In this document: piece after piece, positions 676 through 57,120 of the stretch | Position numbering within the stretch: position 1 is the stretch's first letter | Layout: each line of letters begins with the position of its first letter | Assembly (NCBI GenBank): GCA_963818455.1 | Contig: CAWFSE010000001.1 | Location: forward strand, 75,959 to 139,958 | Source: an uncultured Actinomycetota bacterium | GTDB lineage: Bacteria > Actinomycetota > Actinomycetes > CAVWCF01 | DNA length: 64,000 nt | Direction of reading: 5' to 3' | Notes under the pieces: generated by a model | Seen by the model: the letters and a program-made list of their open reading frames with translations, nothing else | Databases searched by the model: none | What the model was told of the DNA's origin: nothing | Translations under genes and position numbers: made by a program

Positions 676-761
676 GAGGCCTCCTAGGGTCGGTCTGCCG
701 AAGTGTAGGGTTGTGGAACGGCGTTTCACTTTTCGCCCCGCGCCCAGCTGAGGAGCCAGCC

Positions 762-1668
762 GTGCCCGACGTCACGATCGTCGAGGTCGCCGCCCGCGAC
801 GGCCTGCAGAACGACCCGGCCGACCTGACCACCGCGCAGAAGGTCGAGCTGATCGAGCGCTGCGTCGACGCGGGCCTCACCCGGCTCGAGGTCGCCTCGT
901 ACGTCAACCCGCAGCGGGTGCCGCGGATGGCCGACGCCGAGGCCGTGGTCGCCGCGCTCCCGCGGCGCGACGGCGTCTCGTACATCGGGCTGGTCCTCAA
1001 CGTGCGCGGCTTCGAGCGCGCGGCGCAGACCGCGATCCACGAGGTCAACTGCGTCGTCGTCTCGTCCGACACCTTCGCCCAGCGCAACCAGGGGATGACC
1101 ACCGAGCAGACCGTCGAGGTGGTCGAGGCCGTCGCGCCGCTGGCCCGCGCGGCCGGGCTCGTGCCGACCGTCACGCTCGCCGCGTCGTTCGGCTGCCCGT
1201 ACGAGGGCGAGGTCCCGATCGCGCGCACCGTCGCGCTGGCCGAGCGGCTGGCCGCCAGCGGCGTCGAGGAGATCGCGCTGGCCGACACCATCGGCGTGGG
1301 CGTCCCGCCCGACGTCCGCCGCCGGGTCGAGGCGGTCCGCGCCGTGACCGGCGACCTGCGGCTGCGCGCGCACTTCCACAACACCCGCAACACCGGCTAC
1401 GCCAACGCCCTGGCCGCCGTCGAGGCGGGCGTGACCGTCCTCGACTCCAGCCTCGGCGGGATCGGCGGCTGCCCGTTCGCCCCCAAGGCCACCGGCAACA
1501 TCGCCACCGAGGACCTCGTCTACCTGCTGGAGCGCTCCGGCTACCGCACCGGCGTCGACTTCGACGCGCTCGTCGGCCGCCAGCGACTGGCTCGGCGAGC
1601 AGGTCGGCCGGCCCACCCCCGCCCTGGTCAGCAAGGCCGGCGGCTTCCCGAAGGGAGACGCGGCGTGA
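762..1668 (+). CDS. HMGL-like lyase (hydroxymethylglutaryl-CoA lyase family TIM barrel); one frameshift
   Basis: GTG 762 follows AGGAG. VPDVTIVEVAARDGLQN...HFHNTRNTGYANALAAVEAGVTVLDSSLGGIGGCPFAPKATGNIATEDLVYLLE is the HMGL-like signature. The C-terminus ..WLGEQVGRPTPALVSKAGGFPKGDAA* is in the +1 frame (an apparent extra C near 1577). Stop 1666-1668 overlaps the next GTG. Confidence 0.85.
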
Positions 1669-3424
1669 GCGCCCCGACCCAGGCCCCCGTCGTCGTACGC
1701 GCGGTCGACGGCCCCGAGCCGGCCGCGGGCCACCTGCGGGTGGCGGCCGTGCAGTTCGCCGCGGGCACCGACGTCGACGACAACCTGGCGACCTGCCTGC
1801 GGATGATCGACGCCGCCGCGGCCGAGGGCGCCCGGGTCATCGTGCTGCCCGAGTTCGCCCACCACGTGTCCTGGTACGACGACCGCGACCACGCCCGGCG
1901 GATGGCGATCACCACCGACGGGCCGTTCGCCGCCGCGATCGGCCAGCGCGCCAAGCAGCACGGCGCCTGGGTGATGCTCAACGCCGTCGTCGCCCGCGCC
2001 GACGGCCGCTCGACCGGCAGCAACCTGCTGTTCTCCCCCGACGGCGAGCTCGTCGCCACCAGCGACAAGCAGGTGCTGATGGGCAGCGAGCGCGACCACA
2101 TCGACGACGCGCTCGAGGCCGGGCCGGTCGTCGAGACGCCGGTGGCCCGCTTCGGCATGTACTCCTGCATGGACGGCGTCATCAACGAGACGCCGCGCGG
2201 CCTGGCGCTGCGCGGGGCGCAGGTGCTGCTCAACTCGCTGAACTCCTTCGCCCGCGACGAGGGCAACCTGCACATCCCGGTGCGGGCGCCGGAGAACCGG
2301 GTCTGGATCGTGGCGGCCAACAAGGTCGGCCCGCTCATCCCGCCGGACCGCATCGAGGCCGTCTCGCAGGCCGTCGGCGTCCCGGTCGAGATGCTGCACG
2401 GCGCCGGCGACAGCCAGGTCGTGGCCCCCGACGGCACCGTGGTGGCCATGGCGCCGCCCACCGGCGAGGCCGTCGTCGTCGCCGACATCGACGTCGCGCT
2501 CGCCGACGACAAGCGCCGCCCGGACGGCACCGACGTGTACGCCGCGCGCCGCCCCTCGCTGTACGCCCCGCTCGCCGAGGCCCCCCGCGGGCGGGTCGAG
2601 CCGGCCGGCGCCGAGCGGCTGCGCGCCGCCCTGGTCCAGCCTGCCGCCGACGGCGAGGCCGCGATCGCCGAGGCCGCCGCGCTGGTCGCCGACGCCGTGG
2701 CGCAGGGCGCCGAGCTGATCGTGCTGCCCGAGCTGTTCTGCTTCGAGGGCGCCTCGGTCGACGTTCCCGCCGCCGAGGCCGCCGCCCGCGGCCGACGCGG
2801 CGATCGCCGCGCTGGCCGCGGCGCTGGCCGGATCGGGCGCCCACGCCGTCACCTCGCTGCCGCGAGGCGCCGCGCACGCGGCCGTGCTCGTCGGCGCCGA
2901 CGGGCGTGGTGGCCACCCAGGGCCAGCTGCACGCCACGGCCCGCCACCCCTGGGCCACCGACCTCGCCGACGACCTGGCCGTCCAGGTGCTGCCCTGGGG
3001 GCGGCTCGCGCTCGTCGTCGGCGACGACGCGGTCTACCCCGAGACGTTCCGGCTCGCGGCCCTCGCCGACGCCGACGTCGTCGCCCTGCCGTTCCACGCC
3101 CAGGAGCCCTGGGAGCTGGAGACCGGCCTGCTCGAGCGGGCGGCCGAGAACCGGGTCAACCTGGCCGCGGCCAGCCGCCCGACGCCGGCCGGGGCCAGCA
3201 TCGCGGTGCCGCTGAGCGGGGAGTTCACGCTGTGGTCGCCGAGCCGCACGAGGCCCTTCGACGGCGTGATCTCGCGGCCCGAGCCGGTGCTCGCCGACGC
3301 CGCCGATCGGGTGACGCTCGTCGACCTCAGCCCGGCCCAGGCGGTCAACCGGATGGTCTCCAAGGGCACCGACCTGGTCGACGGCCGGCCCTGGAACCTG
3401 CTCGACGCCCATCTCACCACCTGA
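1665..3424 (+). CDS. Tandem carbon-nitrogen hydrolase (nitrilase-superfamily) protein, two CN-hydrolase domains; frame-disrupted
   Basis: Starts at GTG 1665 (VSAPTQ..). Domain 1 has the Glu/Lys/Cys triad contexts VIVLPEF, SDKQVLMG and GMYSCMDG. Domain 2 (from ~2620, AELIVLPELF..) runs through frame switches at ~2790 and ~2905 into ORF 2906..3424 (..LALVVGDDAVYPETF..ENRVNLAAAS..). Confidence 0.75.
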
Positions 3425-3511
3425 GAAGGATTCCGTGGTTTCTCGCACATCCTGCTTAGAGGGTGGGAAGAATCGGGACTATGGTCCCTACGGTCGGGCG
3501 GGTTCGACCCG

Positions 3512-3540
3512 TTGACTCCACCCACACCCCATCGTAGAGT
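3512..3540 (+). promoter_or_regulatory. Sigma70-like promoter of the 3594-10814 operon
   Basis: TTGACT (3512-3517), a 17 nt spacer, then TAGAGT (3535-3540). It is the only non-coding gap (3425-3593) ahead of a tightly packed gene string. Confidence 0.5.
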
Positions 3541-3545
3541 GGGCA

Positions 3546-3575
3546 TTCGTAACAGCGTTCCAGCCGATGGAACGC
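3546..3575. promoter_or_regulatory. Operator-like site (module A)
   Basis: TTCGTAACAGCGTTCC (3546-3561) starts 5 nt after the -10 hexamer. It overlaps the perfect inverted repeat GCGTTCCA-N5-TGGAACGC (3555-3575). It is 15/16 identical to the minus-strand sequence at 19100-19115. Confidence 0.5.
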
Positions 3576-3593
3576 GGGCGAAAGGCAGGGACC

Positions 3594-4408
3594 GTGGGCG
3601 AGACCCTCAGCACCGTCGAGCAGCTCGTCGCCGAGAGCGGCCCGGTCGACGTCACCTGGATCTACGAGCAGTGGCGCGACGAGCTCGCCAGCCTCATGCA
3701 GCTGGTGGCCGACCGCTTCGAGCTCGAGCAGGACCCCTCCACCAACGGCCTCGAGGTCGCCGGCGAGCTGGGCTCCGGCATCCACGGCCAGGTGCAGTGC
3801 TTCGCCGGCCCGGACATCGACTGGATGGTCTACAGCTGGATGGCCGACCCGAAGAACGGGTTCGCCAACCTGCACCTCACCATCTCCCCCGGCGCCCACG
3901 TCGACCTGCCGACCTTCGGCCTGGCGTTCGCCAACTTCGGCATCCGCCCGTGGGGCTTCGTCGACTCGGTGCCGCGCCGCGACCTGACGACCAACCCCGA
4001 CTACCACGACCGCTACTACGGCTCGCTCAACGAGCGCTGGCTGGAGATCCGCCGCGACAACCCCCAGCTCGACTGGTTCACCTCGCCGACCTCGTACATC
4101 CGCGCGGTCACCTCGCCCACCGCGTTCTGCTACTCCGGGCCGATGGAGCAGAAGACCGTCGACATCATCCAGGGCTACGGCCGCGAGCACCTCGAGCGCT
4201 GGATCGGCTGGTGGGACGGCGCCGAGCCGACCCCCGTCGAGGAGCCGCGCCGCGCCTGTCGGCCTACACCGAGGACGCCCGCCGCACGATCGCCGTGCTC
4301 GACCCGGCCAACTCCGTGGCGGTCCGGCTGTTCGGCCAGGACATCTGCGACTCCCTCGTCAGCGCGCTGTGGGGGGCCGACCGCACGCTCCCCCGCGCCG
4401 GCGTCTAG
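3594..4408 (+). CDS. Red chlorophyll catabolite reductase (RCCR)-like / bilin-reductase-fold protein, paralog 1; one frameshift
   Basis: ORF 3567..4556, then a frame switch (~4250) into the tail of ORF 3512..4408 (..SAYTEDARRTIAVLDPANSVAVRLFGQDICDSLVSALWG..*). Blocks DIDWMVYSWMADP, VPRRDLTTNPDYHDRYYG and SPTSYIRAVTSPTAF match my recollection of plant RCCR (ACD2). Paralogous to 6787..7551 and 23418..24296. GTG 3594 (after AAAGGCAGGG) is preferred over ATG 3567. Confidence 0.65.
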
Positions 4409-4428
4409 GCCGCGGAGACCACACGCCG

Positions 4429-5439
4429 ATGACCCGCATGGTGCGTTCGCTCTGGGGCGCCGCGCGCGTGCCCGGCGCGGACGCCGCCGTACGACACCGC
4501 GCACCTGCGGGTCTTCTACCCGGCGCTGCGCGAGGACACCCACGACGAGCGGATGACGGGCGTCATGCGCCCCGACCCCGCGGCCGCGCCCTTCCCGGTG
4601 GCGGTGATCCTGCCCGGCGTCAACGTCGGGCAGGACGCCTACCGCTGGCTCGCGATCCGGCTCGCCGAGGCGGGCATCGCCGCCGTCACGTACGACCTGG
4701 TCGGCGCGCTCACGCCCGGCCTCGTCGGCGTGAGCCCCGGGCCTCGACCTGGCCGCCGTCGCCCCTGACGCGTACGGCACGCCGGCCCACCGCCCCGGCC
4801 ATCCAGGCCGTCCTCGACGGGGTGGCCGCGCTGGCCGCCGAGGGCGCGCTCGGCCGGGCGCCCTCGACCTCGACCGGATCGCGCTCATCGGCCACTCGGC
4901 CGGCGGCACCGTGGTCCTGCAGTCGGCCGCGACCCGGTGGTACCCCGGGCTGCGCGCGGCCGTCGTCTACGGCGCGCACACCCAGCCCGCCCAGGTGCTC
5001 GGCTACGACGCCGGCGCGATCCTGGCCTCCCCGGTCGACGTCCCGCTGCTGCTCATGCACGGCACCGAGGACGGCATCATGGCCGCCTCGCGCGGTGCGC
5101 TACGGCCAGGAGTCCGGCGCCCGCGTCGACCCCGTCGAGCGCACCTACGACGAGGCCACGGCCGCGTGCCCCGACGCCTGGCTGCTGCACCTTCAAGGGC
5201 GCCAACCACTTCGCCATCGGCCACCCGCACGACACCACGTCGGCGCGCGGGTTCCTCGACGGCGAGCCCACCACCGACCCGGCCGCCACCCGCGAGGCCC
5301 TGGCGGCCGTCGTCATCGACTTCCTCGTCCGCGCACCTGCTCCCTGGCGACGAGGCGGCCCACGCGGCTGAGCGACTCGCTGATCTGCCCACCGCCCCGC
5401 CGCACCGAGATCGCCACCGTCCGACGCCGCACCGTCTGA
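4429..5439 (+). CDS. Alpha/beta-fold serine hydrolase, chlorophyllase/dienelactone-hydrolase-like layout; heavily frame-disrupted
   Basis: ATG 4429 has GGAG 11 nt upstream. Reconstructed sequence: ..PYDTAHLRVFYPA..PFPVAVILPGVNVGQDAYRWLAIRLAEAGIAAVTYD..LDRIALIGHSAGGTVVLQSA..VPLLLMHGTEDG..FKGANHFAIGHP.. This needs at least 5 frame switches (ORFs 4369, 4553, 4911, 4937). The GHSAGG nucleophile elbow is followed by Asp and His in order. The 3' end is uncertain (5371 or 5439). Confidence 0.6.
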   Translation: MTRMVRSLWGAARVPGADAAVRHRAPAGLLPGAARGHPRRADDGRHAPRPRGRALPGGGDPARRQRRAGRLPLARDPARRGGHRRRHVRPGRRAHARPRRREPRASTWPPSPLTRTARRPTAPAIQAVLDGVAALAAEGALGRAPSTSTGSRSSATRPAAPWSCSRPRPGGTPGCARPSSTARTPSPPRCSATTPARSWPPRSTSRCCSCTAPRTASWPPRAVRYGQESGARVDPVERTYDEATAACPDAWLLHLQGRQPLRHRPPARHHVGARVPRRRAHHRPGRHPRGPGGRRHRLPRPRTCSLATRRPTRLSDSLICPPPRRTEIATVRRRTV

Positions 5440-5460
5440 CCTCACGAGGAGACACCCCCC

Positions 5461-6790
5461 ATGCTCAAGAACCTCTGGTACGCCGTGGAGTTCAGCCACG
5501 CGGTCACCAACAAGCCGCTGAAGATGCAGTGCCTCGGCCAGCACTTCGTGCTGTGGCGCGACCGCAAGGGCGAGGTCTCCTGCCTGTCCGACCTGTGCGT
5601 GCACCGCGGCGGCTCGCTCGCCGGCGGCTGGCTCACCCCCGACGAGCGACTGCATCGTCTGCCCGTACCACGGCTGGGAGTTCGAGGGCGACGGCGCCTG
5701 CTCGCGCATCCCCGCCCAGCCCGCAGCGCGGCATCCCGAAGAAGGCCCGCGTCGACTCGTACCCGGTCAAGGAGAAGTACGGCCTGGTCTTCGTCTTCCT
5801 CGGCGACCTGCCCGAGGAGGAGCGCCCGCCGATGCCGGACATCCCCGAGCTCGAAGACGAGACCATGGCGCGCGTCTACGGCGAGTACAACTGGAACGTC
5901 AACTACGAGCGGGCCATGGAGAACGCCATGGACCCCTCGCACGCGCCGTACGTCCACGGCAACCGCTTCGGCAACCCCGACAAGCCCGAGGTGGCCGACT
6001 TCGACGTCGTGCTCACCGAGTGGTCCGGCCTGGCCGACATCCCGCTCTACCCGCCGCCCGGCAACCCCAAGGGCGCCTGGGGCAAGCTGCTTCCGCAAGT
6101 CCGACGGGCCCGAGCGGCGAGCCGGTCATGGTCAACACGCGCGCCGGCTTCTTCCTGCCGAACATGAACATCCTGCACGTGCACCTGCCGTTCGGGAACC
6201 TCATCCTGATCGACGCCAACGTGCCGATCGACGAGCACCGCACCCGCTCGCTGTTCATCGGCCTGCGCGACTTCATCAAGGGCAAGTGGGCCGACAAGGA
6301 CGCCATCAAGCGCATCCAGTACATCTTCGAGCAGGACGACGCCGTCATCTCGCTGCAGCGCCCCGAGCTGCTGCCGTTCGACCTGACCGACGAGATGCAC
6401 GTGCGCTCCGACGCGCTGCAGGTCGCCTACCGCCGCCGCCGCAACCAGCTGATCGAGGCCGGCTGGGGCATCGACACCCACCAGATCGTCGGCGACGGCC
6501 CGCGCGACCTCGCCGTGGTCATCCCCTCGCCGGCCCGCAAGAACAACCCCGAGCTGGCCAACGCGTGGGTCCACAAGGAGGTCGAGTCGGCGAAGATCCG
6601 CAGCAAGCGGACCATCGGCGGCGACGCGGCCTTCGAGAAGGTCGAGGGCCGCGCGCTCAGCCTCGGCGAGGGGTCGATCGACGCCGCGCCGCCGGAGCAC
6701 ATGGAGAAGTCCGCCGACGACGTCGAGCTGCCCAACCCGCACGCGGGCAACGGCAACGGCTCGGCGCCCTCGAACGGCGCCGGCGCGTGA
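5461..6790 (+). CDS. Rieske [2Fe-2S] non-heme-iron oxygenase, PAO/Tic55/VanA-like class; frame-disrupted
   Basis: ATG 5461 follows GAGGAG. CVHRGGSL and DCIVCPYHGWEF supply the Rieske ligands. ENAMDPSHAPYVHG fits E-x3-D-x2-H-x4-H. The C-terminal region reads ..IFEQDDAVISLQRPELLP..SDALQVAYRRRRN.. Pieces lie in ORFs 5461.., 4911..6167 and 6020..6790 (at least 3 frame switches). Confidence 0.8.
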
Positions 6791-7551
6791 GCGAGCGGCT
6801 CGCCCACGCGCTCTGCCTGCGCACGATCCAGCGGATCGTCGACCGCTCCGGCGTCAAGGAGGTCTCGGGTGAGGACGGCGGCCCGTTCGCCGTCCTCACC
6901 TCGAAGCTGGGCCCGGAGCCCACGCCCACCGGCGAGGTGCGGATCTGGCTCGGCGACGGCCCGGTCGAGAAGGTCGTCTACGCCGGCATCTGGAACGACG
7001 TCATCGGCCTCGACAGCCACATGGTCTACGCGTTCACCGCGCCCGACAGCGCCGTCCCGCACTTCACGCTGGACTCCGTCTACGGCCACGGCTACTACGC
7101 GTTCCACCTCGACCTCACCCCGCGGGCCGACCTCGGCGCCAACCTCGCCTACATCGACGAGGTGTTCATGCCGCTGCAGGAGATGTACGACGAGACGCGC
7201 GCCCTCGAGGGCCTCACCGAGCCGGCCATCGGCCCGCGCCAGCGGGCGATGATGTCGCCGTGGATGCTGGTCTCCCGCTCCGAGGAGGCCACCTACCGCA
7301 AGCTCGACGCGCCGGTGAACACCTACCTCGACCACTGGTTCTCCCTCGCCGAGGGCGGCGTCTCGCAGGCCACCCTGGACAGCCTCGAGGGGGCCAGCCT
7401 CGCCGAGCGCGACGTGCTCAACCGCGGCAACATCTTCAGCCGCGAGGTCGACGCCGTCTGGGACCAGATCACCCCGCTGATCGGCCGCGAGGACGGCGAG
7501 CTGATCCGCCTCAACCTGCTCGCCAACGAGCTCGTGCAGAAGGAGTCCTAA
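6787..7551 (+). CDS. RCCR-like / bilin-reductase-fold protein, paralog 2 (intact)
   Basis: 254 uninterrupted codons from GTG 6787, which forms a GTGA overlap with the oxygenase stop. ..VPHFTLDSVYGHGYYAFHLDLTPRADLGANLAYIDEVF.. and ..NIFSREVDAVWDQITPLIG.. align with paralogs 1 and 3. Confidence 0.6.
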   Translation: MSERLAHALCLRTIQRIVDRSGVKEVSGEDGGPFAVLTSKLGPEPTPTGEVRIWLGDGPVEKVVYAGIWNDVIGLDSHMVYAFTAPDSAVPHFTLDSVYGHGYYAFHLDLTPRADLGANLAYIDEVFMPLQEMYDETRALEGLTEPAIGPRQRAMMSPWMLVSRSEEATYRKLDAPVNTYLDHWFSLAEGGVSQATLDSLEGASLAERDVLNRGNIFSREVDAVWDQITPLIGREDGELIRLNLLANELVQKES

Positions 7552-8500
7552 GTGGGCGAGCAGCAGCCCAGCGAGTGGCAGAAGAAGATCACCGGCGAGT
7601 GGTACGGCCGGCCGAGCGTCTTCGACCCCGACGGCAACCACGTCGGCTACGAGCGGGTCAGCCGGGCCAGCGTCTTCGAGGACGGCAAGACCCGCTACTG
7701 GATGAAGACCGACCTGTCCGACGTGCGCGGGGCGATCCGCAACCGCTTCGAGCTCGGCGCGCAGTTCGACTTCTCGGTGATCGACAGCGACATCAACCGG
7801 GTCTACATGGGCCCGGACTTCTACGGCACCGGCCAGCCGTACGGCACCTTCGTCGACAGCCACTACTACTCGACCGGGTGGGAGGCCGACCTGCGTCACC
7901 TGGAACCACATCCTCGCCGACGGCGAGACCCAGGTGTACTCCTCGGTGCTGCACGACGGCTGGACCACGTGCGCGGTCTTCAACGGCGTCTACAAGGTCG
8001 CCCAGGACTACGACACCAACCCCGAGACCAAGGCCCGCATCGACGCGTGGATCGACGCCGAGGAGAAGCGCGGCTCGGCGCCGCACGTGCTGCCCACCAA
8101 GCAGACCGGGCGCTGGACCGGCGTCTTCGAGGTCTACGGGCCCGACCAGAAGCTCATCGGCAACACCCTGGTGACCGTCGAGCACGAGCCGCTGTCGCTG
8201 GTGCGCTACCGGCAGACCACCACCTGGGAGGGCGTGGTCAACCGCCGCTACACCGTCGAGCGCACCCGCCACGCCAACAACTGGACGTACGACGGGCCGG
8301 ACCAGTTCGGCAACGCCCGCGCGTACGGCCGCGCGCTCTACGTCTCGCAGCACTTCACCGGCCCGGACGTCTGGAAGATCAAGGGCCGCGAGTTCCTGCT
8401 CGACGAGTCGCTGCAGATGGCCGTGACCTGGATGGCGTACGAGGGCAGCGTGCTCACCTACATCATGCACGGCCTGCTCGAGTGGACGGCTGACGCCTGA
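7552..8500 (+). CDS. Hypothetical protein made of two similar halves (possible tandem beta-barrel/calycin-like repeats); one frameshift
   Basis: GTG 7552 directly follows TAA 7549-7551. A frame switch at ~7890 leads into ORF 7934..8500. Each half opens with G-x-W-x-G (GEWYGRPSVFDPDGN and GRWTGVFEVYGPDQK). I recognised no family. Confidence 0.55.
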
Positions 8501-9373
8501 TGGCGGCGTCCAACGCGGCCGGCCGCGTCGTCGTCGTCACCGGCGTCCACCCGAGGGATCGGACTGCGGCCTGGCCCGCGAGCTGCTCAGCGCGGCGCCC
8601 GGGTCGTCGTCTCGGGCCGCTCGCAGGAGTCGGTCGACAAGGCGCTGGCCGCGCTCGGCGCCGGCGACCGCGCCGTCGGCGTGCCCGCCGACGTCGTCGA
8701 CGCGCCGAGGACCACCAGGCCGCTCTGGGACCGCGCCGTCGAGGCCTTCGGCCGCGTCGACATCTGGGTCAACAACGCCGGCATCTCGCTGGTGCGCAAG
8801 CCGGTGTGGGAGCAGTCGCCCGAAGACCTGCAGGCGATCGTCGACACCAACCTGGTCGGGCGTGATGCTACGGCACGTCGGTCGCCGTGCGCGGGCATGC
8901 TCGCCCAGGGCGGCCGCGGCATGGTCTGGAACATGGAGGGCTTCGGCTCCGGCGGCCAGAAGTCCGACGGGCTGGCGCCGTACGGCTCGACCAAGCGCGC
9001 CGTCACGTACTTCACCGACTGCGTCACCAAGGACCTCGAGGGCATGCCGGTCGGCGTCGCCCACCTGTCGCCCGGCATCGTCGTCACCGACCTGCTGGTC
9101 GACGACTACGAGGGCCAGCCGGAGAAGTTCGAGAAGGCCAAGAAGTTCTTCAACATCCTCGGCGACCAGGTCGAGACGGTCACCCCGTACCTCGCCGACG
9201 GCATCCTCGCCGAGCACAAGTCGGGCGACCGGGTCGCGTGGCTGACCACGCCCAAGGCCAGCGGCCGCTTCTTCAAGCGGTTCGTGCTGCAGCAGAAGCG
9301 CGACCTGTTCGCCGACGTCGCGCTGCCGGCTGCCGGCGGCGACACCGCGGCCGGCAAGCACCGGGCCTCCTAG
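8500..9373 (+). CDS. Short-chain dehydrogenase/reductase, NYC1/NOL (chlorophyll b reductase)-like subtype; frame-disrupted N-terminal half
   Basis: ATG 8500 (TGATG overlap). ..GRVVVVTG-STRGIG..VDIWVNNAGIS..YGSTKRAV (YxxxK)..LSPGIVVTDLL.., then the C-terminal extension AKKFFNILGDQVETVTPYLADGILAEHKSGDRVAWLTTPK. The stretch 8545-8900 needs several compensating frame switches. 8900-9373 is clean (ORF 8681..9373). Confidence 0.75.
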
Positions 9374-9384
9374 CGGAGCGCGCC

Positions 9385-10071
9385 ATGGACAACCCGTACG
9401 GCTACACCGTCCCGCTCGCGCTGTTCGACTACCTCCCGGTCCTGCTGTCCGGGCTGGGCGCGCTGTGGCTGTCGCGCGCCGCGTGGCGGCGCACGCCCGG
9501 CGGTCCGCCCGTACGCGCTGCTCGGCACCGCGTTCGTCGTCGCCGGCGGGGCGTGCAAGGCGACCTGGAAGCTCCTCGTCGCCTCGGGGCGGGCGACTTC
9601 GAGCGGCTCGAGCAGGCGCTGTTCCCGCTGCTGGCCACCGGCTTCTCGCTGCTGGCGTGGTCGCTGCTGTCGGGGGTGCGCGAGCGCGCGATGGCCTGGT
9701 GGCCGTTCGCCGCGGTGTGGGCGCTGGCGGTGATCGGCGCGCTGGCCCAGCGCACCGTGCGGCCGCTGTTCTTCACGACGGTCCTGCTGAGCCTGGCCGT
9801 CACCGCGTACGCGATTCGGCTCGCCCAGAAGGGGCACGAGCGCCCGGCGATCTGGCTGTTCGCGGCGCAGGTCTTCGGATCGCTCACCCTGGTGCCGTTG
9901 CAGCGGCTCGAGCCGACCCTCGCCGTGCAGTGGCTCGAGGAGTCCATCAACACCGTCGCGCAGGGGGCCTTCGCCCTCGGCGCGTGGCGGGTCCTGAGCG
10001 CGCTGTCCGCGCGCGATGCCGTGCCGGCGGGCGACGCGCCCGCCGCGCCTAGGGAGGGAACCCAGGCATGA
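9385..10071 (+). CDS. Integral membrane protein, unknown function
   Basis: ATG 9385 follows GGAG. About 6 hydrophobic segments (..LFDYLPVLLSGLGALWL.., ..FPLLATGFSLLAWSLL.., ..WWPFAAVWALAVIGAL..). A compensated frame slip lies at ~9490-9600. The stop overlaps the next ATG (ATGA at 10068). Confidence 0.6.
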   Translation: MDNPYGYTVPLALFDYLPVLLSGLGALWLSRAAWRRTPGGPPVRAARHRVRRRRRGVQGDLEAPRRLGAGDFERLEQALFPLLATGFSLLAWSLLSGVRERAMAWWPFAAVWALAVIGALAQRTVRPLFFTTVLLSLAVTAYAIRLAQKGHERPAIWLFAAQVFGSLTLVPLQRLEPTLAVQWLEESINTVAQGAFALGAWRVLSALSARDAVPAGDAPAAPREGTQA

Positions 10072-10814
10072 CCGACCAACTCGCGTGGCGCAAGAAGTTC
10101 GGCGTGCTGGCGCCCAGCACCAACTCGATCGTCGAGCCCGACTTCAACCGGATGGGCGTGCCGGGCGTGACCGCGCTGTTCTCGCGCATCCACATCACCG
10201 ACCCCGACCTGTCGAGCGAGGCGCAGCTGGAGAAGCTGCGCGTCCAGCTCGACGAGAACATCGACCGCGCCATCGACCAGGTGTGCACCGCCGAGGTCGA
10301 CTACATGGTGATGGGCATGTCGGCCGAGACGTTCTGGGACGGCAAGGCCGGCAACGACGCGTTCAAGCTGCGGGTCAAGGAGCGCTCCGGCGGCCTCGAC
10401 GTCGCGACCGGCGCCGAGGCGTGCGAGCGGGCGCTGCACAACTTCGGCGTCCGCACGATCGGCGTCGTCACGCCGTACCAGCCCAACGGCGACGCGCAGG
10501 TCATCAAGTTCTTCACCGAGCTCGGCTTCGACGTGGTCAAGCTGATCGGCCTCAAGCGGCCCACCGCGGTGTCGATCGCGCACACCACGCAGGACGAGCT
10601 GCGCGGCGCCCTGCTCGAGCTGAACGAGGAGAAGCCCGACGCCCTCGTCCAGGTCGGCACCAACCTGTCGATGGTCGGCCTGGCCGCCGAGGCCGAGCGC
10701 TGGCTGCACAAGCCCGTCATCGCCATCAACGCCGCCACCTGGTGGATGGCCCTGCGCGACAACGGCATCAACGACACCCTCTACGGCTTCGGCCGCCTCC
10801 TCGAAGAGTTCTAA
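10068..10814 (+). CDS. Asp/Glu/hydantoin-racemase-superfamily protein (maleate isomerase / arylmalonate decarboxylase-like)
   Basis: Intact 248-aa ORF: FGVLAPSTNSIVEPDF..DYMVMGMSAETFW..RTIGVVTPYQP..VQVGTNLSMVG..PVIAINAATWW. The two positions where I recall catalytic Cys in maleate isomerases read Ser (GMSAE) and Gly (VGTNL). Confidence 0.65.
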   Translation: MTDQLAWRKKFGVLAPSTNSIVEPDFNRMGVPGVTALFSRIHITDPDLSSEAQLEKLRVQLDENIDRAIDQVCTAEVDYMVMGMSAETFWDGKAGNDAFKLRVKERSGGLDVATGAEACERALHNFGVRTIGVVTPYQPNGDAQVIKFFTELGFDVVKLIGLKRPTAVSIAHTTQDELRGALLELNEEKPDALVQVGTNLSMVGLAAEAERWLHKPVIAINAATWWMALRDNGINDTLYGFGRLLEEF

Positions 10815-11824: not shown

Positions 11825-11905
11825 GGCTGTCCACAGGCCAGCCCCCACGTAAACGGGCGCACTCACACGTTCGAACGTGACGACAGCGCCTCAACCGTTG
11901 GGTTT
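11825..11905. repeat. Right inverted repeat (degenerate copy of 10813-10890)
   Basis: The reverse complement reads AAACCCAACGGTTGAGGCG..TCACGTTCGAACGTGTGA..CTGTGGACA. It ends 8 nt before the stop (11914-11916) of the minus-strand ABC gene. Confidence 0.7.
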
Positions 11906-11913
11906 GGGGGGGG

Positions 11914-14903
11914 TCAGCCGAGGACGGCGGCTTCGGCGGCGACGGGGAAGGCCCCGGAGCGCTCGACGGCGGCGACCTCGCCGCCGAGGTACGAGCGCAC
12001 GACCTCGGGGTGGTTGCGCACCTCCTGCGGCGTGCCGACGGCGATCACCTGGCCGAGCTCCATGGCGACCATCCGCTCGGCCATCCGGAACAGCAGCGGC
12101 AGGTCGTGCTCGACCACCACGACGGTGGCGTTGAGGTCGCGGCGGATCGCCGTCACCAGCTCGACGAGCTTGTCGCCCTCGGACTGCGCGAGGCCGCCGG
12201 CCGGCTCGTCGAGCAGCAGCAGCTTCGGCTCCAGCGCCAGCATGCAGGTGAGCTCGACCATCCGGCGGGTGCCGGTCGACAGCTCGCCGACGGCCCGGCG
12301 GCTGATCGCCCCGAGCCCCATCACGTCCAGCAGGTCGTCGGCGCGGGCGCGCTTGGCCCGCTCGGCCCGGGGCCAGCCGACGATGCGAGGCGCCGATCCG
12401 CGAGGGCTGCTCGCGCTCGCAGGCCACCATGACGGTCTCGCGCACCGTCATCGTCGGGAACAGCGCGCTGCTCTGGAACGAGCGCACCAGGCCGAGGTGG
12501 GCCCGCTTCTCCGGGGTGAGCGAGGTGATGTCGCGGCCGAGGAAGGCGACCGACCCCTCGTCGGCCTTGGTGAAGCCGGCCACGATCTCGAAGAACGTGG
12601 TCTTGCCGGCGCCGTTCGGGCCGATGATGCCGAGGATCTCGCCGGTGTAGACGTCGAGGTCGACCCCGCGGACGGCCTTGACGCCGCCGAACGAGCGGGC
12701 GATGCCGCGCGCGGACAGCAGCACCTCGGACGAGGCGGGGACCAGCGCCGGCTCGAGCCGGCCGTGCTCGATGAGCTCGAGCCCCGCCGCCGGGGTGTGG
12801 GCCGCCGGGATCTGCTCGGCCGGCGGGCCCAGCGGCGCGCCCGGCGCGGCGGCGCCCGCCGTCGCGGCGGCCAGCGAGGTCAGGTCGATCGAGCTCATCG
12901 CGTCCTCGGCCACGCCCGCCTCGTCGGCCCGCCGCGCCTCGGCCGGGTTGATCCCGCGCATGCGCGCGATCAGGTCGGCGATCCGGTTGCGGAACCACGC
13001 GACGACGCCCGCGAAACCGGCCGGCTGCACCACGATCAGCACCAGCCAGCCGATGGTCGCCACCGCGACGATGATCGTCGGGTCGCCGAGGCTGTTGAGC
13101 CGCAGCAGGCCGGGGATCGTCTGCAGGTAGATCGCGCCGAGGAACGGGCCGATCACCATGGACAGGCCGCCGACGACGCTCTGCGCCACGACGTCGATGG
13201 ACGCCTGGGCGAGGAACTGGTTGGACGTCAGCGTCGACTGCCCGTGGCCGATCACCGCGCCGCCGAGGCCGGCCAGCGCCCCCGCGGCCGCGTACACCTG
13301 CAGCTTGCGCAGCCGGGACGGGACGGCGAACGCCCGCGCGGCGTCCTCGTTGTCGCGCAGCGCCGTGGCCAGCCGGCCGAACGCCCCGCGGCGCAGGTTG
13401 GACGTGAGCCAGAAGCCGAGCGCGAGCACGCCGACGCTGAACAGGAAGTACCCCTTGGCCGTGGAGAAGACCAGCGAGCCGATGATCGGCTTGGCCGGGG
13501 TGACGCCGGTGCCCAGCATCCACTCCTGCCGCAGCAGCCACGAGCCGGTGATGAGCGCGAACGCCAGCGTGCTCACCGCGAGGGCCAGGCCGCGCAGCCG
13601 CAGGGCGGGCACGCCGACCAGCGCGGCCGCGACCGCGCCGACGATGGCCGCGGCCCACAGCCCGAGGTCGAAGTGGCCGGTGGCGTTGACCACCTGCACC
13701 GAGACGGCCGCGCCGATGCCGGCGAACGCGAACTGCCCCAGCGACAGCTGGCCGGCGAGCCCGGTCACCACGAAGACCGACAGGCCGACCAGCGTCGTGC
13801 CGACCAGGGTGGTGAGCACCGCCGCGACGCCGTTGGAGACCGCGAAGGCGAGGTAGGCGAGGTAGCCGACCACGGCCAGCATCGCGAACCGGCCCAGGTT
13901 GCGGATCAGCCAGACCCGCTCGTACGCGCTGGGCATGGCGACGCCCTTGACCTTGCTCCACTCGCCGCCCGGCTGCTGGCGGCGCGACAGCTCCTTCTGG
14001 CGCAGCAGCGCCACGATGATGATGACGCCGACGACGAGCTCGGCGGTGCCGTCGGACGCCGAGCGGGAGCGCACGACGTTCTCGACGATGCCGATGATCA
14101 TCGAGGCGAAGAACGCGATCGGCAGGCTGGTGAGCCGGCCGATCACGGCGCCGGCGAGGCCGAGCAGCAGCAGCGACGGGCCGAGGGAGTCGAAGTCCTG
14201 CACGCCGCGGGTGGGGAAGACGAGCGTCGCCGAGAAGGCCGCGATCGCGCCGGCCAGCGCCCACGACAGCGTGACCATCCGCTTGGCGGAGACCCCGGCC
14301 AGCGAGGCGGCGTCGGGGTTGTCGGCCGCCGCGCGGATCGCCAGGCCGTACCGGCTGCGCTTGAGGAACAGCGTCAGGCCGACCAGCAGGATCGGCGTGA
14401 GGACGATCATCGCGATGTACGGCGGGCCGACGACGGCGCCGGAGACCTCGAAGGACGGCAGCCCCGGCGGCTCGGGGTAGAGGTTGCCGCTGGAGGCCTT
14501 GCTGTTGATGCACCAGGGCGAAGACGAGCAGGAACGTGCCGAGGCCGAGCGTCGCGACCATGCCGAGGACGGTGGGCGCGCCCTTGAGCCGGCGGATGAT
14601 GCCGGCCTCGGTGAGCGCCGACACCGCGGCGGCGGCGGCCAGGCCGATCGGGAAGGCCACCCAGTACGGCACGCCGAGCTGGGTCACGAGCACGCCGACG
14701 ACCGAGGCGCCGAAGACGCCGATCGCGCCGTGGGCGAAGTTGATGAACTTGCTCGCGCGGTAGACCAGGACGAGGCCGACGGCGAGCAGGCCGTACGTGA
14801 GGCCGGTGAACGCCCCGACGAGCAGCCGGCCCGGCGACAGGTCGAAGCCGCCGACGTCGGCGGTGGCCACGGCCTGCAGGGCGGCCTGCACGGCGGCGCT
14901 CAC
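11914..14903 (-). CDS. Branched-chain-amino-acid-type ABC transporter, fused permease(LivH-like)-permease(LivM-like)-ATPase; frame-disrupted
   Basis: GTG 14903 (GTGA overlap with the upstream ATPase stop). ..FINFAHGAIGVFGASVVGVL.. (LivH-like). ORF 11891..14410 has ..GQLSLGQFAFAGIGAAVS.. (LivM-like), then GIIGPNGAGKTTFFEIVAGF (Walker A). ORF 11914..12324 has LLLLDEPAGGLAQSE. No in-frame stop separates the modules. Frame switches at ~14410-14500 and ~12330-12420. Confidence 0.75.
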
Positions 14904-15812
14904 GACGCGACCTTCGCCAGGGCGCCGGCGTGGCCGCCCAGGGTGATCTCGGCGACCAGGTCGGGGCGGCCGCGCAGGTCGGCGGCGAGGCCCTCGAAGA
15001 TGATCCGGCCCTTCTCCATGAAGTACGCGCGGTGCACGAGCGACAGCGCGACGTTGACCGACTGCTCGACGAGCAGCACCGCGGTGCCCTCGGCGTTGAG
15101 CTGGCGCACCATGCCCATCAGCTCGCCGACGATGACCGGCGCGAGGCCGAGGGAGAACTCGTCGACCATCAGGATCTTCGGCTTGAGCAGCAGCGCCTTG
15201 GACAGCCCGAGCATCTGCTGCTCGCCGCCGGACAGGGTGGACGCCAGCTGGTTGCGGCGCTCGGCCAGGCGCGGGAACGCGTCGTACGCCTTGTCGATGC
15301 CGTCGCGCGACCGCGGCCTTGTCGCGGGCGATCGAGAAGCCGTACATCCGCAGGTTCTCGGCGACGGTCATCGAGCCGAAGGTGGCCTGGCCGCCGACGA
15401 TCTCGGACAGGCCGAGCGCGACCCGCTTGGGGGCGCCGAGCTTGGTGACGTCGTCGCCGCCGAGGACGACGCGGCCCTCGTTGGGCTTGGCGAGGCCCGG
15501 ACAGCACGCGCAGCAGGGTGGTCTTGCCGACGCCGTTGGGGCCGAGCAGCGCGACCAGCTCGCCCTCGCCGACGTTCATCGTCGACGTCGAAGAGCACCT
15601 GCACCGAGCCGTACGAGTAGTCGACGCCGCGGGCCTCGAGCAGCCGGGGCCGGTCGCCGGACGGGGCGGTGCGGCACGGGCAGCGGCGCCGCGTGGTGGT
15701 GCGGCAGGGCGGCGGGCTCGTCGCCGCCGGAGACCGGCAGGGATGCGGCGATGACGGCCGCGCTGGCGCCGACCGCGTGCCGCGGGATCGTCGGCTCAAG
15801 CGCCTCGAGCAT
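14900..15812 (-). CDS. ABC transporter ATP-binding protein (LivG/LivF-type); frame-disrupted
   Basis: ATG 15812. ..RLLEARGVDYSYGSVQVLFDVD, MNVGEGELVALLGPNGVGKTTLLRVLSG (Walker A), TVAENLRMYGF, MLGLSKALLLKPKILMVDEFSLGLAP (tail of the signature motif plus Walker B, ORF 14900..15214). At least 4 frame switches. Confidence 0.75.
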
Positions 15813-17138
15813 GGCCGTTGAGGGGCGCGGCCGGCCCGTGGCCGTTCTGCGGACAGCGGCGCGGCCGGGGGCAGCGGCGCGCCGGGCAGGATCGTGGCGG
15901 CGCCCAGCGACGCGGTGCCGAGCACCTGCTCGATCGGGGCGGTGAGCGGGTCGAAGTCCGCCGGCGGGATCCAGGCCGGCGGCTCCACGGCCGCGGGGAC
16001 GCGGCGGGCGGCGACGCGGGCTCGGCGGTGGGCGCGGGGTCGAAGACGGTCGGGGTGCCGGCGAGCTCGGCGAGGTGCTCGGCCTGGGCGGCGGCGACGA
16101 CCTCCTCGAACGGCGCGTTGAGCGGGTCGAGGGCGGCCGACGGCGCCGGCATCGGGGGCGCCGGGGTCCACGGCGCGGCCGGCGGCGGCATCGGCGCGGC
16201 GTGCCAGCCCACGGTCGGCGGCCAGGTCGGCGGGGGGGCGGCCAGCGGCGGCGGGGCGAGCAGCCAGGCGGGGATCGCCGACTCGCTCGGCGCGGCCGCT
16301 GACGCCTCGTCGTCGCCGTGCAGCACCTCCAGCCGGAAGGCCAGCCCGTCCAGCCGCTCCTGGAACGACGTCGTGGCGGCCTTGGGCAGGCGGGTGCTGG
16401 CCGCGGCGCACGCGGCCACCGCCAGCGACAGCGTGGCGAACGCGACGAAGCCGTCGAAGCGGTTGGCGGCGAAGTTGACCCAGAGCACCGCCAGCACGGC
16501 GCCGCCGAGCACCGAGCAGGTCGCCAGCGCCGCCACGGCCGCCCGGTCGGCGGGCTCGGCCGACGACATCGCGGTGACGTCCAGGCACGCGGCGGCCAGC
16601 CCGGTCGCGGCCGCGACGACCCCGGCGGCCGCCAGCGCCCCTGCGGCGCTGGGGAGCGACGCGGCCAGCGCGATCCCGATCGCGGCGATGCCGAGCAGCA
16701 CGGGCACGGCCGTGGCCAGCCGGGCGGGGTCGGCGCGGCGGCGCGCCTCGAGGCCGTCGGCGGCCAGCACCACGACGAGCGCCGCCGCCGCCCAGGCCGC
16801 GGTCAGGCCGAGCAGCGCCGAGCCGATCGTGAGGTCCTTGTCCTGCAGCGCGACCACGGTCGCCGCGACCGAGCCGAGCCCGGCGAAGCCGACGCCGGCG
16901 AACCCGGTGCCGGAGACCCGCGCCCCGGCCGTGCGCGCGGCCCGGCCGAGCGAGGCGCCCACCGAGTCGATCTGCGCGGGCGGCGCGGCCTCGCCGGCGA
17001 CCTTGCGCAGCCGCGAGCAGCTCGAAGCCGCCGACCCCGGGGTCGTCGACGAAGGCGAGCGCGAGGCCGAGCAGCGCCGTGGCCACCGCGATGCCGGTGA
17101 GCACCGCGCGCCACGGCCACTCCGGGCCCGCTGAGCAC
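15796..17138 (-). CDS. Polytopic membrane protein with Pro-rich C-terminal tract, unknown function; frame-disrupted
   Basis: ORFs 15368..17104 and 15796..16962 give many Ala/Leu/Val-rich TM segments, then ..LLAPPPLAAPPPTWPPTVGWHAAPMPPPAAPWTPAPPMPAP.. I recognised no family. The start is uncertain. Confidence 0.4.
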
Positions 17139-17189
17139 GCCGGCCGCGAGGCCCGCCGCGACGGCCGCCCCGAAGACGGCGGCGCCGCG

Positions 17190-17642
17190 CTAGCGGGCGA
17201 GCGCGCGCACCCGCGCCTCCGGCGGCACCACGTCGACGAGCAGCGCGCGCTGCAGGGTCTGGCCGTACCCCAGCAGGATGCCGCGGCCGACGACGAGCAC
17301 GGCGAGCAGCGTGAGGGAGGAGACCTGGGCGGCGACCGCGGCCAGGATGGCGGCGTTGACCACGACGCCGACGAGCACCTTGAGCCGGGTGCCCCCGCGC
17401 GACGCGCGCACCGCCAGCAGCGAGCCGAGGCCGATCGCCAGCGCGCCGGCGATCAGCACGACCGCCACCTCGCCGGTCTTGGCCGGCAGGTCGGCGGCGA
17501 CGGCGCCCACGAGCAGGATCGCCGCGACGACGCCGGCCTGCTCGGCGAAGGAGACCCGCGCGATCGCGGTGACCCGCCCGCGCCCGCGGTCGCCGGCGGC
17601 CCGGCCGTACGAGGGGACCTGCTGCTCGCCCGTCACACCCAT
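17190..17642 (-). CDS. Small integral membrane protein, unknown function
   Basis: Tail of ORF 17190..18518 from ATG 17642: MGVTGEQQ..AGVVAAILLVGAVAADL..VAVVLIAGALAIGLGSLLAV..VLVGVVVNAAILAAVAAQV..LLAVLVVGRGILLGYG..*. Confidence 0.45.
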   Translation of the reverse strand: MGVTGEQQVPSYGRAAGDRGRGRVTAIARVSFAEQAGVVAAILLVGAVAADLPAKTGEVAVVLIAGALAIGLGSLLAVRASRGGTRLKVLVGVVVNAAILAAVAAQVSSLTLLAVLVVGRGILLGYGQTLQRALLVDVVPPEARVRALAR

Positions 17643-17686
17643 CGCGACGCGGGCGGCGTACGCGACGTGCGCGTCGAGCGGTCTGG

Positions 17687-19050
17687 TCACGTCGCGGCGT
17701 CCGGCAGCGGGGTGACTTCCGTGGCGTACGTGTAGCACTTGCAGGCCACGTCGTAGGCGAGCGCGCGGAACGCGGACGTGCCGGCGTAGTGGTCGGCCTC
17801 GAAGAAGGTGCCGAAGGACGGTGGCCGCCTGGAACTCCTCGCCGAGGGTGGCCGACGCGCCTCCTTGAAGGCCGCGGCGCTGGTGGTGGTCGCCTTGTCG
17901 AGGCCGGCCTTGAGGAAGAAGACGGCGTCGCAGTAGAGCAGCGCGGTGCGCGCCTCGCCCCGGCTCGCGAAGGTGATGCCCGCGCCGCTGAGGATGTCGA
18001 CGCACTGCTGCTCGCGCGGCTGCGGGAAGGCCAGCTGGTCGGTCTCGACGTCCCAGCCGGGGGCCACGCCGACGCCGACCGAGCCGGGCAGGCCCTCCTG
18101 CGGCACGGTGGCGGGGTTGCCGGTCATGAAGGTCGGGCTGTCCCAGGTGGAGATGGCGTACTGCGAGATCAGCTCGTTGGCGGCGGCGCTGAGCATGAAG
18201 AAGGGCGCCATCCGGGCCCCGCCCATGAAGATCACGTGCTCGGTGCCCTTGGTCTTCAGGCCGAGGGCGGCCTCGCCGAGGCCGACGTTGATGTCGTTGA
18301 CCGTCTCGGTCTTGATCCAGTACGAGTCGACCGAGCCGACGCCGGCCTGCTGGAGCCCGGGCTCGAGGATGTTCTCGACCTGCCGGCGGGTGCTGGGGTC
18401 CTCGACGGCGACGATGCCGACCGTGGCGCCCTGGGCGTCGTCGAGGTACGGCTGCGTGGTGAGGGTCTCCAGCAGGCCGGCGGTGAAGTCGTCGTACACC
18501 GGGAGGGACGGCGCCCACAGGTAGGGCGACAGCTCCTCGTACGCCTGCTGGTCCTGCGGGACGAGCGCGGCGTCGAGCATGACGGTGCCGGCCTGGGCGT
18601 AGCAGGGGCGGGCGTTGGCCTGGAACTGCCCGGTGAGGACGACGGCGAAGACCTTCTCGTCCTGGGTGAGCTTCTTGCAGAGCGCCTCTTCGGCCTCCGG
18701 GGAGTCGTCGGCGGCCTCGAAGACCACGACGACCGGCTCGATCTGCTTGCCGCCGAGGCCGCCTTGGGCGTTGACCGCGTCGACGAGCGCCTTGACCTGG
18801 GCCTCGCCGTCGCCCTGGTCGGGGGTGGTGAAGCCGAGGGAGGACGAGACGGTGCCGAGGTCGGTGACGATGAAGCCGACCCGCACGGTGCTGTCGGTGA
18901 CGCCCGGGACCGGCAGGTCGCCGCCGGAGCCGCGCCGCGCCGGGGAAGACCCCGTCGACGGTCGCGCCGAAGCAACCGGTGAGCGCGAGGCTGGCGGCCG
19001 TCAGCCCGGCGGCCGCGGTCGAGGCGGCGGCGCAGACGGGATGTCACCAT
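17687..19050 (-). CDS. ABC transporter substrate-binding lipoprotein (LivJ/Peripla_BP_6-like); frame-disrupted
   Basis: ATG 19050 follows GAAGGAG. A lipobox LALTGC is visible in a shifted frame at ~18975. The ORF 17687..18886 body reads ..VRVGFIVTDLG..KVFAVVLTGQFQANARPCYAQAGT..VGIVAVEDPSTRRQV.. The N-terminus and the ~17800-17900 region need frame switches. Confidence 0.7.
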
Positions 19051-19099
19051 GGCGGGGCGCTCCTTCTAGGGCCTGGCCGACGCTCGCGTATCGCCCACC

Positions 19100-19115
19100 G
19101 GAACGGTGTTACGAA
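19100..19115 (-). promoter_or_regulatory. Operator-like site (module B)
   Basis: The minus strand reads TTCGTAACACCGTTCC, 15/16 identical to 3546-3561. It starts 8 nt downstream of the -10 hexamer of the ABC-operon promoter. Confidence 0.5.
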
Positions 19116-19123
19116 GTGCGCCG

Positions 19124-19152
19124 AGCCTAGGTTCGGGGTCGGGGGGTGTCAA
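19124..19152 (-). promoter_or_regulatory. Sigma70-like promoter of the ABC importer operon
   Basis: Minus strand: TTGACA (19152-19147), a 17 nt spacer, then TAGGCT (19129-19124). It lies 74 nt upstream of ATG 19050. Confidence 0.5.
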
Positions 19153-19270
19153 CGGATGTCGCCCGTTCGAGACCTTGTCCTGTTCCACTCCGCACAGGTA
19201 CGGTCCACTGAACGGAACGGGCGGGCGCGGAACTCCCCGACCGCTTCAGCGCGTCAGACCACGCAATCTG

Positions 19271-20394: not shown

Positions 20395-20405
20395 CGGTCC
20401 CATGG

Positions 20406-24296: not shown

Positions 24297-24328
24297 GCCG
24301 GAACTCTAGCGGGCCGATCCCGCCGAAT

Positions 24329-24341
24329 GGAACACCGTTCC
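24329..24341. promoter_or_regulatory. Operator-like perfect palindrome GGAAC-ACC-GTTCC (module C)
   Basis: Lies 33-45 nt upstream of ATG 24296. AACACCGTTCCAGC is 13/14 identical to 3551-3564. A minus-strand TAGAGT (24308-24303) sits only 6 nt before the ATG, suggesting a leaderless transcript. Confidence 0.45.
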
Positions 24342-24361
24342 AGCAGCCGGTCTGGCTCGGA

Positions 24362-25860: not shown

Positions 25861-25877
25861 GGCGCGAGACTAGGGCC

Positions 25878-30863: not shown

Positions 30864-30904
30864 GGAACGGAATCCCGCTCAGCGGAACACCGATCCCGCG
30901 GAAC
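30864..30904. promoter_or_regulatory. Three GGAAC half-sites including GGAACACCGATCC (module D)
   Basis: GGAAC at 30864, 30884 and 30900. 30884-30896 matches the 24329-24341 palindrome at 12/13 positions. CGATCCCGC also occurs next to module C (24316-24324). Located 29-69 nt upstream of ATG 30835. Confidence 0.35.
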
Positions 30905-30977
30905 GCTACCTGGCACCCGCCGCCGCGGTAAAGGCCTTGCCGCGAGTCTTCATCCGACCGGGTTGCGGCCCCTGCCG

Positions 30978-55540: not shown

Positions 55541-55550
55541 ACGCTCGCCG

Positions 55551-57090: not shown

Positions 57091-57120
57091 GGCGGTCTCC
57101 TCGGAGGGGGTTGCCGAAGG

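Follow-up and report, generated by a model that had tools for sequence, protein, structure and literature searches.

A putative three-box operator of IclR type shared by an RCCR/Rieske oxygenase operon and an ABC importer operon of an uncultured actinomycetote

Two operons on opposite strands of a DNA stretch from an uncultured Actinomycetota bacterium (64,000 nucleotides, analysed at its full length and hereafter called the window; 73.7% G+C) begin with near-identical promoter-operator modules. One operon encodes RCCR-like proteins and a Rieske oxygenase, and the other encodes an ABC importer. We asked whether a single regulator may serve both operons, to which family such a regulator would belong, and what kind of pathway it might control. 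A sequence-only reading of this DNA had proposed the shared modules, and its coordinates and spacings for them were all correct when both strands were re-read. The features discussed below are collected in Table 1.

Table 1. Predicted promoters, operators and operons in the window, with the distance of each palindrome centre from the gene that follows
Feature	Position	Strand	Composition	Palindrome centre
Promoter A	3512..3540	+	-35 TTGACT 3512-3517, 17-nt spacer, -10 TAGAGT 3535-3540	
Operator A	3549..3573	+	box 1 GTAAC 3549-3553, N3 (agc), box 2 GTTCC 3557-3561, N7 (agccgat), box 3 GGAAC 3569-3573	39 nt upstream of GTG 3594
Operon under promoter A	3594..10814	+	several genes with apparent frameshifts; genes 1-4: RCCR-like 1, alpha/beta hydrolase, Rieske/VanA_C oxygenase, RCCR-like 2; genes 5-8: unknown 320-aa protein, SDR, membrane protein, Amdase/maleate-isomerase-like protein	
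Promoter B	19124..19152	-	-35 TTGACA 19152-19147, 17-nt spacer, -10 TAGGCT 19129-19124	
Operator B	19088..19112	-	box 1 GTAAC 19112-19108, N3 (acc), box 2 GTTCC 19104-19100, N7, box 3 GATAC 19092-19088	56 nt upstream of ATG 19050
Branched-chain-amino-acid-type ABC importer operon	11891..19050	-	Peripla_BP_6 lipoprotein, two BPD_transp_2 permeases, ABC_tran ATPases	
Second conserved island	19173..19218	-	GTTCC-N7-GGACC ... GGAAC ... ACAAGG	
715 site	706..727	+	-10 TAGGGT 706-711, 3 nt, GGAAC-ggc-GTTTC 715-727	41 nt upstream of gene start
24329 site	24303..24341	-	perfect GGAAC-ggt-GTTCC 24341-24329, N7, GGGAT 24321-24317, then -10 TAGAGT 24308-24303	at -39 from start codon
30884 site	30864..30908	-	-10 TAGCGT 30908-30903, 6 nt, GGATC-ggt-GTTCC 30896-30884 (12/13), N7, GGGAT 30876-30872, N3, GTTCC 30868-30864	55 nt upstream of ATG 30835

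In module A the -10 box is followed after 5 nt by the 16-mer TTCGTAACAGCGTTCC (3546-3561, + strand), and in module B it is followed after 8 nt by TTCGTAACACCGTTCC (19115-19100, - strand). Promoter A was called by a promoter scan at a 9/12 consensus match, with 0 in shuffles. Promoter B was not called by the consensus scan despite its perfect -35 and 17-nt spacing, because TAGGCT agrees with TATAAT at only 3/6 positions; it is compatible with the actinobacterial TAnnnT form. The 16-mer pattern TTCGTAACAsCGTTCC occurred exactly twice in the window, at these two places. Allowing up to 3 mismatches still returned only 2 matches (0.23 expected; 3 of 100 shuffles reached 2). The two 16-mers are 15/16 identical. 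The core GGAACNNNGTTCC (GGAAC-N3-GTTCC) with at most 1 mismatch matched 6 times against 1.43 expected, a number that 0 of 100 shuffles reached. These matches begin at 715, 3549, 19100, 24329, 30884 and 37134, and all are intergenic except the last. That match (AGAACCGCGTTCC, 37134-37146) lies within coding sequence beside an ABC1-kinase-like gene, away from any promoter context; a chance match is probable.

The shared element had been described as an imperfect GGAAC-N3-GTTCC palindrome. Its core agreed with the counts above, but the notion of a simple 13-bp palindrome did not hold, because a further half-site, overlooked in that description, lies 7 nt downstream of the core. Among 109 unique related sites, a third box GRAMC was present at N7 in 83 and at N6 in 28, the latter because GGAACC fits both the N6 and the N7 readings; other control offsets gave 0-2. 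Judged by its sequence, the shared element is a three-box operator, GnAAC-N3-GTTCC-N7-GRAMC, and not a plain palindrome. A position weight matrix (PWM) scored operator A at 20.6, compared with a mean null maximum of 3.6, and operator B at 20.2. Box 3 of operator B (GATAC) deviates from GRAMC.

Elsewhere in the window, the earlier list of four sites was right about the perfect palindrome at 24329-24341 and the 12/13 match at 30884-30896, but it was incomplete: a fifth site at 715-727 had been missed. This site falls within the 86 bp that separate the divergent Dabb (394-675, - strand) and HMGL-like/CN-hydrolase (762-, + strand) genes, has no third box, and obtained a PWM score of 19. The same site was also seen in L001, L002, L004, L011 and L059 (related loci carry L numbers throughout), where it precedes the RCCR gene by about 2.9 kb. 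The 24329 site precedes RCCR-like paralog 3 and scored 11.0, which exceeds the 95% null (9.2). The 30884 site scored below 8 because its box 1 is GGATC; the PWM was built from strict-pattern sites, and is thus biased and misses this site. At both the 24329 and 30884 sites, box 3 (GGGAT) deviates from GRAMC. The 30884 site consists of two palindromes whose centres are 20 nt apart. The gene that begins at ATG 30835 encodes a signal peptide and has no Pfam match; this operon had been called a WxL operon, a label that was not confirmed, WxLIP_PGBD-like genes being located at 19462-21416 instead. RCCR-like paralog 3 starts at ATG 24296, six nt past TAGAGT, which is the layout expected for a leaderless mRNA.

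A genome scan with an RCCR alignment yielded 66 loci. The 62-nt block that runs from the -35 through box 3 of module A was identical in L001, an independent MAG of an uncultured actinomycetote with 97% identity to the window at the protein level, and its flanks were different. Many genes in the window are broken across several frames relative to their homologs (e.g. 4400-6600, 17190-19050, 24365-25860, 29900-30835 and 55516-57120), a pattern that points to indels introduced by long-read assembly and not to true pseudogenes. Because module A is identical in L001, we consider the regulatory sites to be untouched by such errors. The tRNA gene at 49542-49614 adjoins a fragment of an integrase-core (rve) gene (48315-49076); this neighbourhood may be an insertion-sequence or integration hotspot and is unrelated to the operator finding.

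Motif counts were made over 45 high-GC loci from Actinomadura, Streptomyces, Nocardia, Acidimicrobiia and MAGs, many of them mutually related. The strict motif G-N-AAC-N3-GTT-N-C was present at fixed positions in 40 of the 45. The sequence-only reading had named a similar frequency in random intergenic or coding DNA as the result that would speak against it; the motif instead showed a strong intergenic bias, with 88 of 94 matches in the 13.6% of bases that are intergenic (binomial P ~1e-68, uncorrected for kinship, and with site counts that are not independent because many supporting loci are related to one another). Sites orthologous to operator A were found directly past the -10 of the RCCR gene in L002, L003, L005, L011, L045, L046, L049 and L051. 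As had been predicted for orthologous operons, the RCCR operons of MAG relatives, Actinomadura, Streptomyces, Nocardia and Acidimicrobiia carry the element after the -10. In Actinomadura, Streptomyces and Nocardia the motif also stands directly past the -10 of the operon-heading CN-hydrolase gene and upstream of hydrolase genes. The -35/-10 hexamer pairs of promoters A and B were both kept in orthologs.

Could the likeness of the two modules be due to chance, or to a recent local duplication of a promoter that carries no shared function? The 15/16 identity would fit either origin, as would the C-rich spacers, which by eye are identical at 20 of 29 positions. We find this barely credible, given that the expectation is 0.23 even at 3 mismatches and that the element was kept upstream of orthologs with 37-80% protein identity despite diverged flanks.

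Box 1 reads GTAAC, with T at position 2, specifically at the RCCR-operon and importer promoters, distant lineages included (both modules of the window, L002, L003, L011, L045, L099, L120 and L121), and it reads GGAAC or GAAAC at the remaining regulon promoters. The GTAAC form may tune affinity or reflect constraints at the start site. The record of L006 is titled as a Bifidobacterium breve MAG, yet its G+C content is 57% and the DNA upstream of its RCCR gene almost matches that of L007, an uncultured freshwater-type actinobacterium, so that the taxonomic label looks doubtful.

Other palindromes occur near the RCCR promoter. A perfect GGGAC-tatg-GTCCC at 3475-3488, which precedes the -35 of promoter A by about 25 nt, resembles a DosR/NarL-type box and may be the site of a second regulator. 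In L001 and L005-L009, kindred palindromes (GGGAC-N4-GTCCC, GGGGACAAAGTCCC) precede the RCCR gene, in some cases without an IclR-type site. The DosR-like GGGAC-N4-GTCCC was not enriched in the window (3 matches vs 8.35 expected). Another palindrome, TGAGT-N4-ACTCA, is kept at the RCCR promoter of L002, L003, L004 and L011, about 60-110 nt upstream of the gene; it lies just upstream of the -35 in L002, L003 and L011, and between the -35 and -10 in L004.

For module B, metagenome relatives of the binding protein were found by an alignment-based scan; a metagenome scan with the single binding-protein sequence as query gave 0 relatives. The binding proteins of L120 and L121 have only 47% identity to that of the window, and module B was retained in both. 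These loci keep TTGACA-17-TAcnCT-8-TTnGTAACGCyGTTCC-N7-GGGAC; that is, the hexamers, the spacing and the operator were retained and the spacer sequence diverged. L120 carries TTGTAACGCTGTTCC-N7-GGGAC at a distance from the -10 equal to that in the window. For more distant homologs (~40% identity) the motif was not found directly upstream of the binding-protein gene, which lies there inside Amdase-ACAD-binding-protein operons, with the motif, where present, further upstream. In ~45 metagenome loci, genes for homologs of the binding protein adjoin those for Amdase, ACAD, FAD-monooxygenase, SDR and hydrolases. This linkage, the sites in orthologous RCCR operons and the retention of module B in L120 and L121 give comparative support to the proposal of an operator in the repressor position common to the RCCR/oxygenase and ABC importer operons.

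The second conserved island, which had also been overlooked, reads GTTCCGTTsAGTGGACCGTACCT ... AGTGGAACA..ACAAGG, and about 23 nt plus 9 nt of it are invariant across the window, L120 and L121. A possible -10 (TACGGT) lies on the opposite strand. The WxLIP_PGBD-like genes (+ strand) are divergent from the ABC operon, and the orthology of the divergent genes is supported across loci. The island is probably a divergent promoter with a group-1-type operator (see below) for these genes, and their operon is probably a further target of the same factor.

The alternating boxes resemble the published sites of one regulator family. Three boxes of alternating direction are the layout reported for 32 IclR orthologous groups (Suvorova & Gelfand 2021, PMC8222616). 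The same survey gives TGRAACA-N1-2-TGTTYCA as the consensus of the group 2 pair and GKTYC-RY-W3-4-RY-GRAMC as that of the group 1 pair, places IclR-family sites typically at -20 to -80 from the gene start, and gives a tandem spacing of 18-22 nt for IclR tetramers. An inverted GRAAC/GTTYC pair, 3-4 nt apart as in group 2, is present in operators A and B and at the 24329 and 715 sites, with the departure that position 2 of box 1 is T and not R in operators A and B. The group 1 pair (GKTYC/GRAMC, 7-8 nt apart) is present in operator A and is weaker in operator B and at the 24329 and 30884 sites, and related sites contain one pair of each type in three boxes of alternating direction. All five centres in the window lie 39-56 nt upstream of start codons, and the 20-nt tandem spacing at 30884 agrees with that of IclR tetramers.

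We clustered 876 predicted proteins of the related loci, and the sole recurrent regulator was an IclR-family protein (Pfam HTH_IclR + IclR_C). Its gene lies beside the cluster in 17 loci, of Actinomadura and, at about 50% identity, of Acidimicrobiia/Microthrixaceae. All four readable upstream regions of this gene carry group-1 or three-box sites, and in Actinomadura and Acidimicrobiia the regulator appears, from these sites, to be self-regulating. In the 64-kb window no IclR gene was found by tblastn, and the best E value of a profile search was 0.56; a search of 10 kb to either side in L001-L011 and in the Streptomyces loci also found none. The regulators found in the window were only a TetR gene (63268-63999) and a cNMP-binding fragment (52243-52611). 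Neither is near the operons, so the earlier statement that no cognate regulator is adjacent was correct. An IclR-type factor is assigned here by association in other lineages, and we regard the assignment as likely.

A different reading would be that the operator is real and bound by a regulator of another family (e.g. of TetR, GntR or LuxR type), and that the IclR gene controls something else. An IclR gene is missing from the window and from many related loci, a TetR gene is present, and, to our knowledge, short inverted repeats of the GnAAC/GTTnC kind are not peculiar to a single regulator family. We nevertheless consider a regulator of another family decidedly unlikely: the TetR gene is 44-60 kb from the operators, IclR is the only regulator family that recurs beside the cluster and has the motif in its upstream regions, and the three-box N3 + N7 layout is a published IclR-family signature (PMC8222616).

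How would an IclR-type factor act at these promoters? The 16-mer is probably the core of a three-box operator at which such a factor represses by occlusion. With transcription taken to start ~7 nt past the -10, operators A and B would each span about +1 to +27 of the transcript, a start placed from the -10 box only. On the same basis the 24329 operator would cover about -45 to -21. At promoters A and B an IclR-type dimer or tetramer would bind across the transcription start, and at other promoters it would bind over the -35/-10 region. Occupancy of the operator would block RNA polymerase, and a substrate or intermediate of the pathway would release the factor. In Actinomadura, Streptomyces and the MAG relatives the motif lies 3-11 nt past TAnnnT -10 boxes. 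In marine-type loci it lies within a TTGACC-17-TAGTCT spacer, and in several binding-protein loci the operon is preceded by GTTTC-gTTGACC-GGAAC-N3-GTTTC-gttc-TAGTCT, such that the boxes wrap the -35 and fill the spacer. Repression is likely because the boxes would cover the start site (A and B), -45 to -21 (24329) or the spacer (marine-type), all of which are occluding positions.

We also considered that the IclR-type factor may not simply repress but may activate, or act in both ways, at some of the promoters or at every one. The IclR members PobR, PcaU and PcaR activate (PMC8222616, table). The 24329 site, at -45 to -21, has no good -35 hexamer, which an activator could replace, and its position is compatible with either repression or activation. 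In contrast, the boxes at A, B, 715, 30884 and most orthologs begin 3-11 nt past the -10 and cover the start, whereas those of the marine type fill the -35/-10 spacer. Since both of these positions would occlude RNA polymerase, we give the activator role little credence.

One factor would act on at least five promoters in the window, namely those of the HMGL-like/CN-hydrolase gene, the RCCR/Rieske operon, the ABC importer, RCCR paralog 3 and the secreted-protein operon. The proposed union of uptake and oxygenase functions in one regulon is supported by the comparisons, and its surface-protein arm is supported in part, the targets being secreted proteins.

Where the boxes follow the -10 they could also act as RNA, with a hairpin in the 5' leader (GCGUUCC...GGAACGC) controlling stability or translation. 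Boxes 2 and 3 can pair in module A and L120, and the fold predicted for the module A leader has an energy of -18.1 kcal/mol (z = -1.9). However, z values of five leaders ranged from -1.9 to +1.0, and the folds predicted for module B, L002 and L003 lacked the hairpin. GTTCC opposite GAAAC breaks the pair in L002, L003 and L011, and the boxes of other lineages are untranscribed because they lie upstream of the -10. A scan of the window against Rfam at the gathering score returned the tRNA at 49542-49614 as its sole match, and none at the operators. An RNA element is thus very improbable, and binding by an IclR-type factor remains our preferred account.

The genes under these operators belong to a conserved cluster of ~14 protein families (window 394-10814, 11891-19050 and 23418-26482; loci L001-L066 and L067-L121). 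The families comprise two to three RCCR-like proteins, a Rieske/VanA_C oxygenase, chlorophyllase/PETase-like hydrolases, CN-hydrolase, HMGL-like, Dabb, Aldedh, ACAD, FAD monooxygenase, SDR and Amdase-like proteins, a membrane protein and the ABC importer; an isochorismatase is additionally present in L002. Besides Actinomadura and Streptomyces from soil, the carriers of the cluster comprise Nocardia, Acidimicrobiia, Chloroflexota-type MAGs and many metagenome contigs. Plant RCC reductase is a remote relative of the RCCR-like proteins (E 4e-6), and the RCC_reductase-like protein that begins at GTG 3594 has the N-terminus MGETLSTV, which matches its homologs. The Rieske protein is closest to monooxygenases of the SxtT/NdmA/DdmC type. 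No description of the cluster was found in the literature on bacterial RCCR-type clusters; in PMC10151467, RCCRs appear only as the outgroup to bilin reductases.

The enzymes of the regulon are three RCCR-like reductases, a Rieske oxygenase, chlorophyllase/PETase-like hydrolases of which one is secreted, a CN-hydrolase, a maleate-isomerase-like enzyme and an aldehyde dehydrogenase, to which a dedicated ABC importer is added. Because genes of the RCCR-like, Rieske, chlorophyllase/PETase-like, CN-hydrolase and maleate-isomerase-like kinds co-occur, we tentatively suggest, as an idea that is more speculative than probable, that the operator marks an undescribed bacterial pathway for the import and breakdown of chlorophyll- or bilin-derived tetrapyrroles or related pyrrole/N-heterocyclic compounds. 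If the tetrapyrrole reading were true, the IclR factor would sense a catabolite of that pathway.

The regulatory device itself would be a standard IclR-type catabolic switch, and this regulon and its gene content were not found described in the literature, including the accessible part of the supplementary tables of the IclR survey (PMC8222616). Its logic is conventional; of greater interest is the question of what the regulated pathway degrades. A 25-bp operator and a candidate IclR protein link the ABC importer, secreted proteins and the ~14-family cluster into a testable regulon. The cluster is found widely in Actinomycetota, culturable Actinomadura and Streptomyces among them. Screening for inducers with the regulator would be the shortest route to the substrate of the RCCR/Rieske pathway. 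The operator also offers a handle for a genome-wide search for further members and a possible basis for a reporter or biosensor.

Among known operators, the KstR (TetR-family) operator TnnAACnnGTTnnA of actinobacterial cholesterol genes is an AAC/GTT inverted repeat at catabolic promoters. We rejected it, as its AAC/GTT spacing is 2 nt vs 3 nt here and there are no third box and no steroid genes. The LexA box, GlnR boxes, ClgR and ECF sigma -35 elements, considered as look-alikes, were rejected on spacing or sequence. In the E. coli IclR and AllR operators (TGGAAATNATTTCCA; KTTGGAAWAWTWTTCCAAC) the GGAA...TTCC arms of the IclR box are five bases apart, as in GGAAC-N3-GTTCC, and both proteins are repressors released by small metabolites; they differ in their AT-rich centres and their pathways (glyoxylate bypass and allantoin), and a third box has not been described for them. 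The KdgR box of gamma-proteobacteria (RWWGAAACGNCGTTTCAKKA) has a GAAAC-N3-GTTTC core layout identical to that of Actinomadura sites such as GAAACAGCGTTTC, and KdgR represses a catabolic regulon that includes transport genes. In contrast to the operators described here, KdgR sites are AT-rich and two-box and serve pectin/uronate use in Proteobacteria, and we found no evidence of orthology between KdgR and the IclR group at these loci. A close parallel in layout is offered by the IclR-family three-box operators (PMC8222616), with experimental precedent in PcaU of Acinetobacter: the alternating layout is common to both, whereas here the RCCR and ABC promoters have an unusual box 1, GTAAC, and the regulator gene is unlinked.
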